Below are positions 25,497 through 36,733 of a stretch of DNA of 62,050 bases, in pieces. The translations under genes were made by a program, and so were the position numbers. Every line of letters begins with the position of its first letter. The first letter of the stretch is position 1. The stretch covers positions 1-62,050 of the forward strand of contig JBBTVO010000011.1 of NCBI GenBank assembly GCA_038063195.1. Direction: 5' to 3'. The stretch is from Patescibacteria group bacterium. GTDB taxonomy: Bacteria > Patescibacteriota > Microgenomatia > Levybacterales > UBA12049. A model generated the notes under the pieces. It made no database searches. It was not told the DNA's origin and was given only the letters and a program-made list of their open reading frames with translations.

Positions 25497-25572
25497 GCGC
25501 TTGTAGCTCAAAGGATAGAGCATTGGATTGCGGATCCAAAGGTTGGTGGTTCGATTCCACTCAGGCGCGCCA
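25497..25572 (+). tRNA. tRNA-Arg(GCG), CCA encoded
   Basis: GCGCTTG-TA-GCTC...TTGGA-TTGCGGA-TCCAA...GGTGG-TTCGATT-CCACT-CAGGCGC-G-CCA. Anticodon GCG. Confidence 0.8.
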
Positions 25573-25659
25573 GGAGAGGTCGCATAGCGGACTAGTGCGG
25601 CGGTTTCGAAAACCGCTGTTGCCGAAAGGTAACCGTGAGTTCGAATCTCACCCTCTCCG
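25573..25659 (+). tRNA. tRNA-Ser(CGA)
   Basis: The 5' 26 nt are identical to tRNA-Ser(UGA). Anticodon arm GCGGT-TTCGAAA-ACCGC, long variable arm, GTGAG-TTCGAAT-CTCAC-CCTCTCC-G. Confidence 0.9.
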
Positions 25660-25660
25660 C

Positions 25661-26098
25661 ATGAAATTTGAATTCTCAGCAGGCGGTGTTGTTTTTCGAA
25701 AAGCCCATTCGGCAAGCTCAGGGCAAGAAGAAATTTTTATTTTGGTTGCTCAGCATTCCCAGCATCATGGTTGGGTTTTTCCAAAAGGATGGATTGAAAA
25801 GAGTGAAACCAAAGAAGATGCTGCTCTAAGGGAAGTTAAGGAAGAGACAGGCATCATCGGGAGGATCACAAAACCTTTACAACCCGTCACATACTGGTAT
25901 GATCTTGAACGAGTAAAAATAAAAAAGACTGTTTATTATTTTCTGATGGAATTTGCCGGAGGAAATACTGAGGAACATGACGATGAGATGGAAAACGTAG
26001 AATGGATGCCCAAAAAAGAAGTTTTGGAAAAATTAACATATAAATCAGATAAGGAGGTTTGGGTTCAGGCAGAAAGAATATTAGCAACTAGCCACTAG
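25661..26098 (+). CDS. NUDIX hydrolase
   Basis: Nudix box GWVFPKGWIEKSETKEDAALREVKEETG. The ATG at 25661 is used because the upstream ORF extension only translates the tRNA genes. Confidence 0.85.
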   Translation: MKFEFSAGGVVFRKAHSASSGQEEIFILVAQHSQHHGWVFPKGWIEKSETKEDAALREVKEETGIIGRITKPLQPVTYWYDLERVKIKKTVYYFLMEFAGGNTEEHDDEMENVEWMPKKEVLEKLTYKSDKEVWVQAERILATSH

Positions 26099-26110
26099 TT
26101 ACTAGTCGCT
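26081..26110. repeat. CTAG-rich repeat (contains ACTAGCCACTAG)
   Basis: ttagcaactagccactagttactagtcgct. Supplies the last codons and stop of the NUDIX gene. Inverted copy at 26933-26962. Confidence 0.8.
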
Positions 26111-26120
26111 GTTTTACTTG

Positions 26121-26207
26121 CGGTGGGACCGGGATTCGAACCCGGGATAATCTTACGACCATACACGCTTTCCAAGCGTGCTCCTTAAACCACTCGGACA
26201 CCCCACC
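26121..26207 (-). tRNA. tRNA-Ser(GGA)
   Basis: Minus strand GGTGGGG...CACGC-TTGGAAA-GCGTG, long variable arm, CCGGG-TTCGAAT-CCCGG-TCCCACC-G. Confidence 0.85.
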
Positions 26208-26218
26208 CGTTTCCCGAT

Positions 26219-26593
26219 TTAAATTACTTTAATATCGTATTTTTTGATTTTCCTATCGTCTGTAAGAAGCGTAAGCCCTTCGGCTTTTGCCTGAGCAATA
26301 AGCATTCTGTCAAACGGATCATTGTGATAAATAGGAAGTTTTCCTAAATTTAGAACATGAGAAAGATTTATGGATAATAATTCAAAACCAGAAAAAGACA
26401 CCATTTCCGTTATTGTAGTTTTTAAAGGTAACTTTCCTGCAGTATTTTTAATGCTTATTTCCCAAAGAGTAGCAATGCTGACATAGATATGGCTATTTGG
26501 ATCTTTTAATATTTTCTGCGTTGACTTGTTGAGCTTCTTATCTTCGCTTAACCACCAAATAAAAATATGAGTATCTACCAGATAACTTTCCAT
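26219..26593 (-). CDS. vapC: type II toxin VapC (PIN domain)
   Basis: 124 aa. YLVDTHIFIWW N-terminus and the spacing of acidic residues are typical of PIN toxins. Follows the antitoxin gene. Confidence 0.8.
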   Translation of the reverse strand: MESYLVDTHIFIWWLSEDKKLNKSTQKILKDPNSHIYVSIATLWEISIKNTAGKLPLKTTITEMVSFSGFELLSINLSHVLNLGKLPIYHNDPFDRMLIAQAKAEGLTLLTDDRKIKKYDIKVI

Positions 26594-26601
26594 ATCTTAG
26601 G

Positions 26602-26835
26602 TTATTTACCATAAAACATTTTGTTTATTTCGGGATCTTCGTCTGTAAAGTTATCCGGCATAAAAATTTTCCCCTTCAAAAGCCCTGGCTTGCGGGGCTT
26701 TAATGGCTTCTTGTAGCCGATCAATTTCGCGACAGGTTTCCCTGCCTTTGCAATTATTACATTCTCGCCAGCAGCCACCTGCTCAATGAGTTTTGACAGA
26801 TTTGTTTTTGCCTGATGAATATTTATTATCTGCAT
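26602..26835 (-). CDS. Phd/YefM-type antitoxin
   Basis: 77 aa. MQIINIHQAKTNLSKLIEQVAAGENVIIAKAGKPVAKL is typical of the prevent-host-death family. Confidence 0.8.
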   Translation of the reverse strand: MQIINIHQAKTNLSKLIEQVAAGENVIIAKAGKPVAKLIGYKKPLKPRKPGLLKGKIFMPDNFTDEDPEINKMFYGK

Positions 26836-26932
26836 AAATTATTTAATTAGCTAACTTAGCTAAGTATAATAAAAAACTTATTTTATGTCAACATTGCCGA
26901 TCAAAAAATTAAAAAATACGACATTTCAACAA

Positions 26933-26962
26933 TCTAGCTAACTAATCGCTAGTGGCTAGTCT
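26933..26962. repeat. CTAG-rich repeat, inverted copy (contains CTAGTGGCTAGT)
   Basis: tctagctaactaatcgctagtggctagtct. The 14-mer tcgctagtggctagt recurs at 32197-32210. Confidence 0.8.
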
Positions 26963-27009
26963 CTAAATTCCTTGACAAGGTCTTGAAAATATATCAGACT
27001 AAGGTAGGA

Positions 27010-31688: not shown

Positions 31689-31772
31689 GCGCTGAGTGTA
31701 TAGGAAGAGCAGGCGGAGTACTTGACGTTTACATTACAGCTTCCTGACGATATACTTACAATAGAATTAAAC

Positions 31773-31817
31773 AGCAACTAGCAGGCTAGCAATTAGCCAC
31801 TAGTTATTAGGCACTAG
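31773..31817. repeat. CTAG-rich repeat upstream of a four-helix-bundle gene
   Basis: agcaactagcaggctagcaattagccactagttattaggcactag. Confidence 0.75.
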
Positions 31818-31821
31818 AATT

Positions 31822-32202
31822 ATGAAAATAACATCCTACAGAGAGCTGATTGTATGGCAGAAATCAATGGATTTAGCAACTTTAATATTTAACATAACTA
31901 AGTCTTTCCCTGCTTCTGAGCAGTATGGACTTACAAATCAAATAAGAAGGGCTTGTTTTTCAATCCCATCAAACATAGCAGAGGGATTTTGTAGAGGCGG
32001 TAGGCCAGAATTCAGACAATTCCTGCAAATCGCATTTGCATCCGGAGCAGAGCTTGAAACAGAACTGGAAATAGCTAAAAACATTGGAATATTACAAGAT
32101 AAAGATTATAAAATTTTAATTTCAAAGCTTGATGAAATCATGCGAATGCTGAATAAAATGATCAGAACTGTTAGAGATAATCAGAAACAATCTAGTCGCT
32201 AG
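31822..32202 (+). CDS. four-helix-bundle protein (23S rRNA intervening-sequence protein family)
   Basis: YRELIVWQKSMDLATLIF...FPASEQYGLTNQIRRACFSIPSNIAEG is the family signature. Confidence 0.85.
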   Translation: MKITSYRELIVWQKSMDLATLIFNITKSFPASEQYGLTNQIRRACFSIPSNIAEGFCRGGRPEFRQFLQIAFASGAELETELEIAKNIGILQDKDYKILISKLDEIMRMLNKMIRTVRDNQKQSSR

Positions 32203-32221
32203 TGGCTAGTTGCTAATCGCT
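32191..32221. repeat. CTAG-rich repeat downstream of the four-helix-bundle gene (inverted relative to 31773-31817)
   Basis: tctagtcgctagtggctagttgctaatcgct contains CTAGTGGCTAGT, the reverse complement of ACTAGCCACTAG. Confidence 0.8.
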
Positions 32222-33604
32222 ATGGAAGCTACACATTTCGAATCTCTATATCCAGCACAGTCCCGCTTTGACGAGATTGAGAAAATACTTAAATTTGCCA
32301 GAGAAGGGAAATCTTCTCAGCTTGTGGGGCTTCCCGGAGTAGGTAGGTCAAATACTCTTGGGCTTTTAAGCTACAACAAGAATATAAGAAAGAAACATTT
32401 GGGCGAAAATCAGAAATGGTTTCATTTTGTCTCCTGCGATTTTTCAGAAATCCGCAAGAAGCCTGTCTCTGATGCGATGAAATTTATATTCCTGCGCCTT
32501 GCTGATTCGCTTCGCGAAAGAAAAATATTAAAAAACGCAGAATCTGAATTCGCAGGAGAAGGCTCTTTTGAGCAGATTGATAAAATTTTTAAAGAATCTG
32601 CCGCGACAAATGACGAGATGGTTCTTTTTCAGGGTCTCAAGCGCGCAATAGACTTCCTTTGTATTGAAAAAGAGCTGACAATTGTATTCTTGTTCGACAG
32701 ATTTGAAGAATATATTCCAATGCTTACTCCCGAGTTTTTTGCAAACTTAAGGGTCTTGAGAAACCGCGCAAAGTACAGATTCTCAGTAGTATTTTCTCTT
32801 AATAGACCCCTTGAAGAACTTATCGAGCCCATACTTTTTGCCGATTTCTATGAATTTCTTGCAGATAATATTGTCTATCTTCCTATTTTGGATAAACCCG
32901 GCTTAGATTTCAGGATTTCTTATCTCGAAAAAGTGACAATGAAACAATTGAACAATGAAACAATTGAACAAGTCCTTTTACTAACCGGCGGACACGGGAA
33001 GCTTACAAGACTCAGTCTGGAAACAATATTAGCAACTAGCGACTGGCCACTAGCAACTAGTGAAAAACTGCAAGAGTTTCTGTTGGAGCAAAAAAGCGTA
33101 AAAGCAAGTCTATACGAGATATGGATATCGCTAATTCCGGAGGAACAATTACTGCTAGCGTCTAGAGAAAAGCGTTTAGCGTTTAGTTTTTCAGGTAGTT
33201 CCTACTTAGAGAAAATTGGACTTCTTAAAAATGAAGTAATAACTATTCCCCTTTTTGAAGAATTTATCTCAACCCTACTTCGTCAAGACTCCGGAAGGGC
33301 ACAGCAAATATCTTTTGATCAGAACACAAATGAGATCAAAATGGGCGAAACAGCTCTGTCTGATTCTTTAACTTCATCTGAATTCAAGCTTCTTAAATTT
33401 CTTCTTGATAATCCAGACAAACTAATCGAACGGGAAGAAATAATTAAGGCCGTATGGAAAGATGAAAAGACCACAGAAGGAGTCACAGACCAGGCACTTG
33501 ACCAGCTTATATTCCGCCTTCGCAAAAAAATTGAAGTTGATCCAAATAATCCTGTCCACCTCCAAACCTTAAAAGGCAAGGGGATAAGGTTTAGCAATCG
33601 CTAG
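32222..33604 (+). CDS. P-loop NTPase-like domain fused to an OmpR/PhoB-type winged-helix DNA-binding domain
   Basis: Walker-A-like GLPGVGRSN (Arg where Lys is expected), Walker-B-like IVFLFDRFEE. C-terminal LTSSEFKLLKFLLDNPDKLIEREEIIKAVW...ALDQLIFRLRKKIE...LQTLKGKGIRF matches trans_reg_C. The ATG at 32222 is preferred over the TTG at 32210. Confidence 0.75.
   Translation: MEATHFESLYPAQSRFDEIEKILKFAREGKSSQLVGLPGVGRSNTLGLLSYNKNIRKKHLGENQKWFHFVSCDFSEIRKKPVSDAMKFIFLRLADSLRERKILKNAESEFAGEGSFEQIDKIFKESAATNDEMVLFQGLKRAIDFLCIEKELTIVFLFDRFEEYIPMLTPEFFANLRVLRNRAKYRFSVVFSLNRPLEELIEPILFADFYEFLADNIVYLPILDKPGLDFRISYLEKVTMKQLNNETIEQVLLLTGGHGKLTRLSLETILATSDWPLATSEKLQEFLLEQKSVKASLYEIWISLIPEEQLLLASREKRLAFSFSGSSYLEKIGLLKNEVITIPLFEEFISTLLRQDSGRAQQISFDQNTNEIKMGETALSDSLTSSEFKLLKFLLDNPDKLIEREEIIKAVWKDEKTTEGVTDQALDQLIFRLRKKIEVDPNNPVHLQTLKGKGIRFSNR
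33029..33062. repeat. CTAG-rich repeat embedded in-frame in the NTPase-wHTH gene
   Basis: ttagcaactagcgactggccactagcaactagtg encodes LATSDWPLATS. Same word family as 26081-26110. Confidence 0.75.
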
Positions 33605-33714
33605 ACTTTTAAATTTTCAATTTTTAATTTTAATTGAAAACTTCAAATTTTAAATTTCAAATTAAATTCCGTCGCCTATTGACGTAGGACGACCAATAAG
33701 TATACGATAATTGT

Positions 33715-34980
33715 GTGAGAAAGTTTCTGCTCTTCATTCTTTCTTTTTATATATTCCTCTCTTTTTTCTATACAAAAACTTTCGCAAGCTATACTGTAAA
33801 GGCTGATCCTCCAGTGACATCTGCTAATCCATTTAACGGACAACCTACCCACAAATCTGCATTGCAAATATTTAAAGACTTAAGTCTTTCAGCTCAATCC
33901 CCTATTATTACCGAGAACACAAACACAGTCACAATTAACTTCGAAAACCTTGGACAAAATAAAGAATATGTAGTTTGGGCAGGAAAAGAGGATTTCCTTG
34001 GCAAATATTCTTCTTCGGCAGACAGAAAGCTAGATTTTGCAGTCTGTGGCTGGGGAAGTATACTTAAATTAGCTGACAAAGACAATCCTGGTACAGGAAA
34101 ATGTGCAGATGATGATTATTTCCACGCTGGAACTTATACTCTTCAAATATGTACTGACGAGGAATGTAATAACGTTGTGGAGTCTGTACCCCTTTCTGTG
34201 GCTCGTTACTATCCTGATTTTATAATTAGCGAGAAAGATCCTGTTACAGTAACTTTAATTGGATTAAGAAAACGAAACGACGACGGAGGACGAAATAATT
34301 ACTCAATAGAAATCTCCCGTATGTCAGACCTTGGTAAAGAAATTGAAGAACACTGCACCACAGTTAAGCCTGACGGAACCAATGATCCCCCAGTTACTTT
34401 CAAATCTCTTGAGCCTGGCAATTATGAACTTAGAATTAATGAAAGGCAGAAGGAGGGGAATTCATTTACCCGCGCATTTGGCAGTGATTGTAATACTGGT
34501 TTTACTTATTACTCTGTCCGGCTGTTTGTTGGATTAGATGGAGCAATAAAGGTAGAAGAGGTTATCGCTGATCCATATGGTCAGGATGTCGGAGGACAAG
34601 AGCGAAAAGATTATAAAGCTCCGAATGCGCCATGCGAAGTAGATCAGAAAACCGGAAAAGGAAAGTGTCCTACCGGTCTTGGTATATCTATAAATACAAG
34701 CCCAGGTGGCTTCGTCAGGTCTGTATTTGGGCTTATCTTAAGTATCGCAGGCGGAATTGCGCTTCTTCTTATAATATACTCCGGATATCAGCTAATTACA
34801 TCTCAAGGCACTCCTGAAAAGCTTGAAGCAGCCAGACAGCAGCTTGTTTCAGCAATTGTCGGACTCTTGTTTATAATTTTCGCACTGGTTATTCTTCAGG
34901 TAATAGGGGTAGATATTTTGCAAATTCCTGGTTTTGAACCAAGCACTACGTCTCATTCCCAAAAATCAGCGGCACCTTAA
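33715..34980 (+). CDS. secreted protein with large N-terminal domain fused to a C-terminal VirB2/TrbC-like T4SS pilin module
   Basis: GTG start. Signal peptide ...FFYTKTFA. The C-terminal ~90 aa (LILSIAGGIALLLIIYSGYQLITSQGTPEKLEAARQQLVSAIVGLLFIIFALVILQ) is paralogous to the three small pilins downstream. Confidence 0.7.
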   Translation: MRKFLLFILSFYIFLSFFYTKTFASYTVKADPPVTSANPFNGQPTHKSALQIFKDLSLSAQSPIITENTNTVTINFENLGQNKEYVVWAGKEDFLGKYSSSADRKLDFAVCGWGSILKLADKDNPGTGKCADDDYFHAGTYTLQICTDEECNNVVESVPLSVARYYPDFIISEKDPVTVTLIGLRKRNDDGGRNNYSIEISRMSDLGKEIEEHCTTVKPDGTNDPPVTFKSLEPGNYELRINERQKEGNSFTRAFGSDCNTGFTYYSVRLFVGLDGAIKVEEVIADPYGQDVGGQERKDYKAPNAPCEVDQKTGKGKCPTGLGISINTSPGGFVRSVFGLILSIAGGIALLLIIYSGYQLITSQGTPEKLEAARQQLVSAIVGLLFIIFALVILQVIGVDILQIPGFEPSTTSHSQKSAAP

Positions 34981-34983
34981 ATT

Positions 34984-35310
34984 ATGATTGTAAAAAATGT
35001 TGATTATTTAGCACTTAAACTAGGGGACACAGAAATTGGTGCGCCGGGAGGAATCCCAACTGGGGGTACAGGCACAGGTCAAAAAATAATCCAAACAGGA
35101 ATAACACTTTTGTTTATATTTGCCATCATTCTTGCCCTTTTCTATATCGTGCAGGGTGGAATTCAGTGGATAGTATCAGGCGGAGATAAACAGCAGATAG
35201 ATCAGGCAAGACTGAGAATTACATATGCAATAGTAGGTCTTGTTATAGTTCTTGCCGGGTTTTTCATAGTAAATCTAGTTTCCGGAATTTTCAAGATAAA
35301 TTTTTTCTAG
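34984..35310 (+). CDS. VirB2/TrbC-like T4SS pilin paralogue
   Basis: 108 aa. Two TM helices flanking a conserved WIVSGGDKQQIDQAR loop. Confidence 0.7.
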   Translation: MIVKNVDYLALKLGDTEIGAPGGIPTGGTGTGQKIIQTGITLLFIFAIILALFYIVQGGIQWIVSGGDKQQIDQARLRITYAIVGLVIVLAGFFIVNLVSGIFKINFF

Positions 35311-35361
35311 CAAAAGTAGCTCTTGACAAAGTAAAAAATTCATAATAGCATTAACTTAAGC

Positions 35362-35790
35362 ATGAAGAAATTTATTCCAGCCATTGCCCTCTCAACATAT
35401 CTTCTAACTCCCGCTGTTGCTTTTGCTCAAACGAGTGTATCAACATGCCCGCCTGGTCAATTTAATGTCCTTTGTGGTTTTACAGCTAGCAGCTTTGGAA
35501 GCGTAGTAAGTACTCTTGTCAGTGTACTTTTTGTAATTGCAGTAGTAATTGCATTGGTATTCTTAATCTGGGGAGGTATAAAATGGATTCTCTCAGGCGG
35601 AGATAAAAGTGCTGTTGAGAGCGCAAGGAATACTATAGTTGCGGCAGTAGTCGGATTGATAATAGTCTTCCTGTCTTACTTTATATTGAATATCGTTCTC
35701 GGATTCTTTGATATTAAGCTTGCAGACCTTAAGATTCCCAAAATAAACCCGGCTGCACCAATTGAAACGCCTGAAACGCCTTCTTTGTAA
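35362..35790 (+). CDS. VirB2/TrbC-like T4SS pilin paralogue
   Basis: 142 aa. Signal peptide ...PAVAFA, then two TM helices flanking WILSGGDKSAVESAR. Confidence 0.7.
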   Translation: MKKFIPAIALSTYLLTPAVAFAQTSVSTCPPGQFNVLCGFTASSFGSVVSTLVSVLFVIAVVIALVFLIWGGIKWILSGGDKSAVESARNTIVAAVVGLIIVFLSYFILNIVLGFFDIKLADLKIPKINPAAPIETPETPSL

Positions 35791-35837
35791 TCTCTTCTAG
35801 TCTTGCCTTTTTTTTCCTTCCCTGCTAATCTAGTTAT

Positions 35838-36149
35838 ATGCCATGGACAGACTGTCTTTCCCCAGAAGGGGTAGCAACCCTTAACTGCATCCCTATTGTT
35901 TTTAGTAACATCGTTAATTGGGCGCTTATACTATCAGGTACGACTGCTTTGTTCTTCGTAATAATCTCGGGCACGAGATACATAAGGTCCGGAGGAGATC
36001 AGGAGAAAATTAAAGGCGCAAGGGAGACTCTGACTTATGCAATAATAGGGTTGGTTATTATCCTACTTTCGTTCGGCATAATAAATTTCATAAGCTATGT
36101 TACAAACGTCGAATGTATAAAGCAATTTGGTTTTGGAAACTGCACATGA
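35838..36149 (+). CDS. VirB2/TrbC-like T4SS pilin paralogue
   Basis: 103 aa. Two TM helices flanking YIRSGGDQEKIKGAR. Confidence 0.7.
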   Translation: MPWTDCLSPEGVATLNCIPIVFSNIVNWALILSGTTALFFVIISGTRYIRSGGDQEKIKGARETLTYAIIGLVIILLSFGIINFISYVTNVECIKQFGFGNCT

Positions 36150-36358: not shown

Positions 36359-36733
36359 ATGGCAAGTATTAAATCATACAAGGACTTAATTGTATGGCAA
36401 AAATCTATGATTTTAGTAAAAGAGGTTTTTGCTCTAACAGCAAGATTTCCAAAATCTGAACTATATGGAATTATTTCTCAAATCAGAAGATCCGCTATAA
36501 GTATTCCATCCAATATCGCCGAAGCGTTTGGCCGAAGATCTGTTAGGTCAACTGCTCAATTTTATTCAATTGCACTCGGCTCAGCGCTGGAGCTTGAAAC
36601 GCAGCTTCTGATATCACGTGACCTTAAGATGGCGGATTTGCAATATTTTAAACCAAGCGATGACTTATTATTGGAAGTTTGCAAAATGTTGAATTCAATG
36701 ACTGGGAAATTAAAGTTCTCAACTAATATCTAG
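36359..36733 (+). CDS. four-helix-bundle protein (23S rRNA intervening-sequence protein family)
   Basis: YKDLIVWQKSMILVKEVF...FPKSELYGIISQIRRSAISIPSNIAEA. Paralogue of 31822-32202. Confidence 0.85.
   Translation: MASIKSYKDLIVWQKSMILVKEVFALTARFPKSELYGIISQIRRSAISIPSNIAEAFGRRSVRSTAQFYSIALGSALELETQLLISRDLKMADLQYFKPSDDLLLEVCKMLNSMTGKLKFSTNI

Follow-up and report, generated by a model that had tools for sequence, protein, structure and literature searches.

The window analysed here is a stretch of 62,050 nucleotides from a Patescibacteria group bacterium of the Levybacterales (assembly GCA_038063195.1, contig JBBTVO010000011.1, positions 1 to 62,050 of the forward strand). At 32222..33604 on the forward strand it carries a gene for a protein of 460 residues, referred to below as the regulator, in which a STAND-like P-loop module appears to be joined to a C-terminal OmpR/PhoB-type winged helix, and whose reading frame runs through repeat DNA of a kind otherwise found mainly between genes. 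The gene adjoins a set of pilin genes belonging to a type IV secretion system (T4SS). The identity of the protein, its fold and the nature of its repeats, taken jointly, are held with high confidence. The fuller reading is favoured with less assurance: that the regulator is a STAND-like, one-component switch whose output is OmpR-type, that it would control the pilin/T4SS operon and work by binding without a need for hydrolysis, and that its linkers tolerate repeats.

Domain organisation of the regulator

The regulator is encoded by a single-copy gene in a genome of 913 kb and 38% GC. Its ATG agrees in alignment with the N-termini of orthologues (ME..HFESLYP); an alternative TTG start lies at 32210. 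More than 1194 homologues share 57-78% identity with it, the closest, at 78%, being from Hainich groundwater. Comparisons between orthologues refer to a set of 81, namely the gene in the window and those of 80 further genomes, whose loci are labelled L001, L002 and so on.

The C-terminal residues 360-460 (33299..33601) form a winged helix-turn-helix of the OmpR/PhoB type, as the first-pass annotation had proposed. Trans_reg_C (PF00486) is the sole Pfam match at threshold, covering residues 382-457 with an E-value of 5.5e-18 and a score of 65.3 bits (cut-off 26.2). The DNA-binding domain of PhoB (1gxp) matches the same region by sequence (E 1.3e-09), and Foldseek recovers the DNA-binding domains of PhoB, OmpR, KdpE and CovR with TM-scores (TMt) of 0.72-0.81, so that family threshold and fold both place the domain in this class. 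The response-regulator models of NCBIfam cover only residues 339-460 and score far under their cut-offs.

The remainder of the protein was divided, on an AlphaFold2 model built from 26 homologues and on Foldseek comparison, into an NTPase core (residues ~16-220), a lid (225-272) and a helical domain (280-356), which together span 32267..33289. The model has a mean predicted local distance difference test (pLDDT) score of 83.7. It places the P-loop on strand 32-35, a loop and helix 42-51, and the Walker B aspartate on strand 153-159, whilst strand 187-193 closes with N194-R195 at a sensor-1-like position. The lid consists of helices 225-271 and the further domain of helices 280-356. Searched against the PDB, the N-terminal part matches ORC4, Cdc6/Orc1, the archaeal Walker-type ATPases PAB2304 (2qen, TMt 0.53) and SSO1545 (2fna), MuB and RFC, all with a probability of 1.0. 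The model thus has the alpha/beta core and helical lid of the AAA+/STAND fold.

At the level of sequence the relationship is more distant. A search of the N-terminal domain against PDB sequences returned nothing at threshold, and in Pfam the orthologues approach AAA_22, AAA_16 and nSTAND1 at E-values of 3e-4 to 7e-4, which are sub-threshold, as are their matches to AAA_35 and ABC_tran. A profile of the N-terminal domain was run against 1.84 billion representative sequences and gathered 1214 clusters (50% identity), of which 645 have E <= 1e-10; lengths are for the most part 430-490 residues. Nearly all of 20 distant members sampled combine an NTPase with a C-terminal winged helix. Of eight of these scanned with Pfam, seven carry Trans_reg_C and some reach nSTAND1 (28.5-32 bits, cut-off 27.1), AAA_22 (31-35 bits, cut-off 27) or AAA_35; the profile ties these threshold-reaching relatives to the regulator at E-values of 1e-23 to 1e-36. 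Together with the modelled fold, this evidence supports a STAND-like N-terminal domain.

The regulator may be compared with several known classes of protein. Like the STAND regulators MalT, AfsR/SARP-LAL and GutR, and like nSTAND1 (PF20703), it would combine a P-loop switch with a helical lid or arm and a DNA-binding domain. It differs from them in its length of only 460 residues, in the arginine of its Walker A motif, in a Walker B that reads D-R and not D-[DE], and in having no sensor repeats: neither Pfam nor the model reveals TPR, WD40 or LRR repeats, and the protein ends with the winged helix. The first-pass description of the protein as STAND/AfsR-like therefore stands in its first half and fails in its second. 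AfsR and the SARPs share the OmpR-type winged helix, but in them Trans_reg_C is N-terminal and is accompanied by BTAD, NB-ARC and TPR domains, whereas in the regulator the order is reversed and Pfam finds neither BTAD nor TPR, which places it outside that family. The OmpR/PhoB response regulators, for their part, have in common with it the Trans_reg_C winged helix and a conserved recognition helix. The regulator is not one of them, however, having neither a receiver domain (no Response_reg match) nor a phospho-acceptor; its input is the NTPase module.

Walker motifs across the family

The Walker A-like P-loop of the regulator reads GLPGVGRSN (residues 36-44, 32327..32353), with Arg42 in the position of the lysine, and the Walker B-like motif VFLFDRFE (residues 155-162, 32684..32707) has Asp159 followed by Arg160. 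Both had been recognised in the first-pass annotation, which proposed the exchange of lysine for arginine; this is borne out by the profile alignment, by the occurrence of lysine in 13 of the 81 orthologues and by the beta1-loop-alpha1 placement in the model. In the alignment lvGlpGvGRSn falls on GHTGSGKST of ABC ATPases, and R42 on the Walker A lysine. Neither motif is canonical: GLPGVGRS (residues 36-43), though correctly placed, departs from GxxxxGK[ST], and the Arg after D159 breaks the Walker B pattern of hhhhD followed by an acidic residue.

These departures extend well beyond the gene in the window. Residue 42 is R in 65 orthologues, K in 13 and Q in 3, and so carries a positive charge in 78 of 81. 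G39 is invariant and P38 present in 77. Residue 159 is D in 76 and E in five, and residue 160 is Arg in all 81, with the acidic E162 two positions on. On a maximum-likelihood tree residue 42 takes eight state changes overall; well-supported branches alone require at least five K/R changes, and the three Q42 sequences form one clade. The distant members mostly have a canonical GxGKS, and their Walker B is mostly D[QE]F[DE] (for example LFDQFDE or LFDEFDD), with DRFD or NRFDE in some; the combination of GRST with NRFDE recurs in a few (P0226, P0264). On this comparison the change from lysine to arginine is a derived and reversible state of the whole subfamily, coupled to the invariant Arg after the Walker B Asp. 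The substitution noted in the first-pass annotation is thus genuine, whilst the idea of a lesion private to one gene is not upheld.

Because the Walker A lysine is mostly replaced by arginine, and because an Arg always follows the Walker B Asp, hydrolysis is probably slow or dispensable in this subfamily. The charge kept at residue 42, along with the strong conservation of P38, G39, S43, the sensor-1-like N194/R195, R231 and R263, suggests that the pocket may still bind an anionic ligand, with no requirement for hydrolysis. A switch driven by binding only is judged to have about an even chance of being correct. The alternative is that the N-terminal domain is a dead pseudo-NTPase, serving as an oligomerisation scaffold only, so that the protein would be a constitutive DNA-binding factor free of ligand control. 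The exchange of the lysine for Arg or Gln is compatible with this, as are the invariant Arg where an acidic residue would follow the Walker B Asp, a Gly41 replaced by N or S in seven of the 81 orthologues, and the want of any NTPase hidden Markov model match at threshold. Against it stand the retained charge and the conserved pocket residues just listed, and also the recurrence of lysine on the tree, a pattern which suggests that the pocket is under selection. A dead domain is accordingly considered unlikely, albeit an explanation that deserves to be weighed.

Distribution and the pilin neighbourhood

Patescibacteria are epibionts, and their T4SS/pilus system is regarded as central to this way of life. 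The N-terminal profile matches 136 of 151 genomes sampled from the order to which the window belongs (120 of the 130 high-quality genomes among them), as against 6 of 301 sampled across the phylum. Within the order it is a near-core gene, present as a rule in one copy. The window genome has one match; many Levybacteria genomes carry one or two additional, distant paralogues of the N-terminal domain (E ~1e-25 to 1e-33, ~435-460 residues).

Downstream of the regulator, on the same strand, lie four VirB2-like T4SS pilin genes (33715..36149), all four with PF18895, which are presumed to form the target operon. In 69-70 of 80 loci the regulator has pilin homologues as neighbours, which lie downstream of it on its own strand or upstream of it in divergent orientation, and PrgI-like and further T4SS genes come after the pilin genes. 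The association with a pilin/T4SS operon made in the first-pass annotation is hence well founded as adjacency, and this recurring synteny makes it reasonably probable that the regulator controls its neighbour. A 2025 survey of patescibacterial T4SS (PMC12102498) names no regulator and does not mention this protein, and our literature search found no description of the regulator, or of heptamer arrays, in Patescibacteria.

The promoter of the first pilin gene (33679..33717, forward strand) reads TTGACG-N18-TACGAT, with the GTG start at 33715 placed 6 nt past the -10 element. A scan with a promoter pattern gave at least one match beside the regulator in 42 loci. In most of these the first pilin promoter is cTTGCA-N17/18-(C/T)TAC(G/T)ATAA, and the start codon follows 5-7 nt after the -10, a spacing which suggests that the pilin mRNAs are leaderless. 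Many loci have another conserved promoter, cTTGACAA...CTAT(G/T)ATAA..ATG, ahead of a pilin gene further on. In many orthologues the regulator stop codon is followed after 3-10 nt by the pilin -35 element. In the window the two are separated by 75 nt, owing to an AT-rich heptamer array (TTTTAAA, 8.3 copies, 33607..33663) which was detected with Tandem Repeats Finder (TRF), is partly self-complementary and is missing from many orthologues. The RNA fold of 33590-33720 has z = -2.3. An imperfect palindrome, CGTCGCCTA-TTGA-CGTAGGACGAC, covers the pilin -35 at 33680-33705 and folds into a hairpin, which might represent an operator or what is left of a terminator.

Repeat DNA within the gene

At 33029..33062, on the forward strand, the regulator gene contains an in-frame array of CTAG heptamers, TTAGCAA CTAGCGA CTGGCCA CTAGCAA CTAGTG, for which TRF reports 4.4 copies of period 7 at 33030-33060. 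Its codons, TTA GCA ACT AGC GAC TGG CCA CTA GCA ACT AGT, specify LATSDWPLATS, a segment in the loop between lid and helical domain that forms part of the lowest-confidence region of the model (pLDDT 66 for residues 271-280). That this word belongs to the same family as the intergenic repeats, as had been claimed, is confirmed by the period of 7 and by the enrichment of GCNACTAG, of which the window holds 12 copies where 3.65 are expected, the count of 12 being reached by none of 100 shuffles. Period-7 arrays of this family cluster at 26083-26110, 26942-26966, 31771-31818, 32192-32217 and 33029-33062. The first of these supplies a telling comparison. The gene at 25523-26098 receives its last codons and its stop from a CTAG array (…ATA TTA GCA ACT AGC CAC TAG, ILATSH*), and the regulator reads …ATA TTA GCA ACT AGC GAC TGG…, that is ILATSDW, in the same frame. 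A single change of A to G, turning TAG into TGG, thus keeps the reading frame of the regulator open.

A second heptamer array (CTGCTAG CGTCTAG AGAAAAG CGTTTAG CGTTTAG; 33152..33186, forward strand), likewise detected with TRF, is also in frame and encodes LLASREKRLAFS in a second variable linker. Genome-wide, its word TAGCGTT also occurs in arrays at C28:12894 and C29:1344. That the gene should end within a related word (agcaatcgctag), as had also been claimed, is weakly founded: the match amounts to only ~1.5 units, and in the closest relative the end reads ...gcgaatcggtaa.

The orthologues indicate that LATSDWPLATS is repeat DNA restricted to a subclade, and not a linker conserved in all of them over unrelated DNA. 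Nor is it private to the window, being shared at the DNA level by ~10 species, with other repeats in the same linker elsewhere. L001-L006, L008 and L009 have the sequence TTAGCAACTAGCNACT[G/T]GCNACTAGCNACTAG at codons matching those of the regulator in the window, L010 has a variant of it and L017 a CGTCTAG form, and the codon that avoids the stop is TGG, TTG or GAG depending on lineage. Nine of the ten members of the clade of the window have the first array, and L010 and L017 are placed in other parts of the tree, which indicates that the array either is old and was lost in places or was acquired more than once. The closest relative has an identical first array and none at the position of the second. 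CTAG arrays also flank the locus in 7 of 12 loci with an in-gene array but in only 2 of the 68 others, so that the in-gene copy appears to track a repeat family specific to certain lineages.

The two linkers are host to a variety of repeats. Twenty-four period-7 arrays were found in the 81 orthologous genes, 19 of them in the first linker (residues ~268-292) and three in the second (~305-335), and they represent at least six words (TAGCAAC, AAATCTT, AATCAAA, ACTAACA, TAGCGTC and AAATTCG). The site of the second array holds other repeats in L003, L004, L025, L032, L002, L008 and L009. Palindromic elements resembling repetitive extragenic palindromes are also translated in frame, in the first linker in L025, L056 and L062 and in the second in L002, L008 and L009, yielding peptides such as VMPNSFRHL, IPAKAGIQ and STSEVTGGAPRRW. 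A tandem of octamer type at 32938-32973 (ACAATGAA ACAATTGA ACAATGAA ACAATTGA) encodes MKQLNNETIEQ within the regulator; the closest relative has EKKIDEKTKEE, of equal length, at that position. Similar words (ATGAAACAAT...) form N-terminal extensions (MKQSNNE..., MKQFNNL...) in the orthologues L006, L011, L017 and L032. Taken together, the comparison of orthologues supports the view that LATSDWPLATS is repeat DNA tolerated in frame. Of the two possibilities raised in the first-pass annotation, toleration of an inserted repeat is thus retained; assembly of the gene through the repeat is not, because distant relatives free of repeats have the same domain order.

A passenger of this kind would not be expected to show every property that the first array displays. 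At third codon positions of the array the 10 carriers show an identity of 0.78-0.80, where the mean for the gene is 0.47 (window standard deviation 0.084); this is some 3.8 standard deviations above the mean and ranks third of 450 windows. The DNA of the array is, by this measure, conserved or homogenised more than the peptide requires. This synonymous conservation, together with the repeated occupation of the linker by heptamer words proper to the respective genomes, may be a sign of function. The array could then be a working cis-element, either a contingency site for phase variation or a binding site or RNA element held in common with the intergenic arrays. In the contingency version, gain or loss of a 7-nt unit would shift the frame into TAG stops and turn off the expression of regulator and pilins. 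The unit length is indeed not divisible by three, TAG codons are present in the other frames, the array sits in a regulator of surface pili, and the same repeat family marks gene boundaries across the genome. However, the units are imperfect (GCAACTA/GCGACTG/GCCACTA/GCAACTA), which disfavours slippage, and the length of the array is constant in the 10 carrier species, with no variants of +/-21 nt; a scan of metagenomes for length variants added one further contig, of unchanged length. No local RNA structure was detected around the two in-gene arrays (z = -0.25). Pairing with the inverted array upstream is possible in only ~4 of the 10 species, and unrelated repeats at the same spot elsewhere fit a merely permissive site. 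A working cis-element is thus regarded as distinctly improbable, and slightly more doubtful again is the claim that the in-frame array has been selected as such, whether as a frameshift-prone switch or as a site for whatever acts on the intergenic arrays.

Two related proposals were set aside. Long-range pairing of the upstream inverted array (32192-32217) with the in-gene array (33028-33053), which are 88% complementary, was rejected as a conserved feature; the upstream array is present only in the window, L001, L004, L010 and L082, and L002, L003, L005, L006 and L009 are without it. It is also unlikely that the CTAG arrays are the operator of the regulator, given that the regulator is found throughout the order, with a conserved recognition helix, and the CTAG arrays only in a subclade.

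Heptanucleotide arrays in the genome

The genome contains 1195 CTAG sites, and a spacing of exactly 7 is seen 39 times, against 1-6 times at neighbouring spacings. There are some 28 true CTAG heptamer arrays, all of them at the edges of open reading frames (ORFs) or intergenic apart from the two within the regulator gene. Since CTAG is palindromic and three units make up 21 nt, three units place TAG in all frames of both strands. Period-7 tandem arrays of every word are common: TRF reports 337 hits, 176 of them with at least three copies, with words including TAACTAA, AATTAGA and TAGCGTT (examples being TAACTAA x10.9 at C40:1-76, AAATTCA x5 at C25:6399 and TAGCGTT at C28:12894). Many of these arrays hold stop codons. 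By a crude measure, using ORFs of at least 120 residues, which cover 82% of the genome, 64 of the 176 lie within coding sequence, so that the arrays are depleted there but not absent.

In being tandem repeats of period 7 above chance, mainly intergenic or over stop codons, these sequences belong among the known heptanucleotide arrays. TAACTGA heptamer repeats have been described in Beggiatoaceae, Cyanobacteria and Bacteroidetes, where they are mostly intergenic, provide stops in all frames and have occasional copies within ORFs at the peripheries of proteins (PMC4679880). The CTAG arrays resemble these, as well as the short tandemly repeated repetitive sequences of cyanobacteria and Mrazek et al.'s long simple sequence repeats, in their period of 7, in their position at gene boundaries, in carrying stops in all frames in one orientation, and in often lying over an upstream stop codon. 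The CTAG arrays differ in the word itself, NNNCTAG, with a degenerate middle and a palindromic CTAG that yields stops in six frames, and in often forming inverted pairs round small cassettes. Their in-ORF copy differs too: it is situated in a linker in the interior of a conserved regulator, is found in ~10 species, is conserved at synonymous sites and occupies a place where at least six words occur.

Inverted array pairs flank two genes for four-helix-bundle proteins of the 23S_rRNA_IVP family (31822-32202 and 36359-36733) and a unit of a tRNA and a toxin-antitoxin pair (26106-26941). The notion that heptamer arrays are a feature of IVP cassettes only was rejected, the genome having five IVP genes against ~28 CTAG arrays. 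The first IVP cassette, comprising the left array and the IVP gene (31771..32202, forward strand; PF05635, E 1e-37), lies between a probable promoter and the regulator's start codon. Its right arm is an inverted-orientation array (CTAGTCG CTAGTGG CTAGTTG CTAATCG CTA; 32192..32221, forward strand), located by repeat search and TRF, which abuts that start codon, an arrangement shared with L001, L004, L010 and L082. The promoter-like site upstream of the cassette is at 31728-31762, with TACAAT at 31757-31762. In orthologues that have no cassette, TTGAta-N17-TACAAT stands 8-12 nt ahead of the regulator ATG. From this short leader it seems that the IVP cassette was inserted into a very short leader of the regulator, which would thereby have become the second cistron. 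IVP cassettes occupy varying intergenic spots of the locus in different species, being upstream, downstream or inside the pilin array. It was also observed that many contigs clearly of Levybacteria (L002, L004, L009 and others) have been deposited as 'uncultured Gammaproteobacteria bacterium', and also as Acidobacteriota and Methylomirabilota, which points to mislabelled or mis-binned metagenome-assembled genomes.

A probable one-component switch at the pilin operon

The top Foldseek matches of the regulator are to ORC4, Cdc6 and Orc1, and this raises the question of whether it might be an Orc1/Cdc6-like protein of the replication origin, or one which organises the chromosome. Together with PAB2304 (2qen) and SSO1545 (2fna), these are its best fold matches over AAA+ core, lid and winged helix, and patescibacterial T4SS genes are often near the origin (PMC12102498). 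The resemblance is nevertheless limited. Identity to Orc1/Cdc6, PAB2304 and SSO1545 is 11-17% and the TM-scores are modest, those to ORC over the full length being only 0.27-0.36; the winged helix is of OmpR/PhoB and not Cdc6 type by sequence; the NTPase sequence groups with nSTAND1, AAA_16 and AAA_22; and it is the pilin operon, in either orientation, that consistently lies beside the gene. The regulator thus falls outside Orc1/Cdc6, and a role at the origin is highly improbable. It is scarcely credible that the regulator serves in conflict or defence as a STAND-type sensor (nSTAND class) whose output is the winged helix, for although relatives match nSTAND1/2 and some distant ones are fused to a kinase or are very long multi-domain proteins (P0236, P0195), the regulator is a near-core gene whose synteny is fixed in 136 of 151 genomes of the order, it carries neither an effector nor a sensor-repeat domain, and its neighbourhood, on which no PADLOC test was run, holds no hint of defence.

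The preferred reading remains that of a one-component transcription factor, in which a STAND/AAA+-type P-loop module is joined to a C-terminal OmpR/PhoB winged helix. The pocket of the P-loop would bind a nucleotide or another phosphate-bearing ligand, and this binding would alter the conformation or the oligomeric state of the protein. The altered state could then place the winged helices on DNA, at the pilin/T4SS promoter and perhaps also at the promoter of the regulator itself. Such a switch would be driven by binding and would not burn ATP. LATSDWPLATS and LLASREKRLAFS are copies of intergenic heptanucleotide arrays in two surface linkers, the coding copy of the first persisting because its single in-frame TAG reads TGG. 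This account, taken whole, is considered somewhat more probable than its negation.

A number of observations weigh against this reading. Full-length TM-scores from Foldseek are modest, at 0.33-0.53. The regulator itself lies under every Pfam NTPase threshold, its best match being AAA_35 at an E-value of 0.075, so that the assignment to an NTPase family is transitive and based on fold. Since K, R and Q are all seen at residue 42, the pocket could be non-functional and not merely confined to binding. The synonymous-site conservation of the first array is left unexplained by a model in which the repeat is a neutral passenger. Finally, conserved direct repeats of the OmpR type, for which a search of the region 33605-33714 had been suggested, were not seen near the pilin promoter, either there or at the orthologous loci; the region holds only the optional AT-rich heptamer array and the conserved promoter, and optional repeat insertions displace any upstream site by 75-130 nt.

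The regulator nonetheless offers an order-wide candidate for the control of the patescibacterial T4SS, fixed in its synteny and directly testable. The natural series of K, R and Q in the P-loop, beside an invariant Arg160, gives a means of asking how switches of the STAND-like kind function if they do not hydrolyse. Heptanucleotide arrays, already described in Beggiatoaceae and cyanobacteria, are here extended to Levybacteria, and the regulator illustrates the route by which short intergenic repeats that carry stops in every frame come to be part of proteins, namely through permissive linkers only and with the requirement for a substitution that removes the stop. Were the in-gene array a cis-element after all, it would couple the expression of pili in an epibiotic ultra-small bacterium to the dynamics of its repeats.

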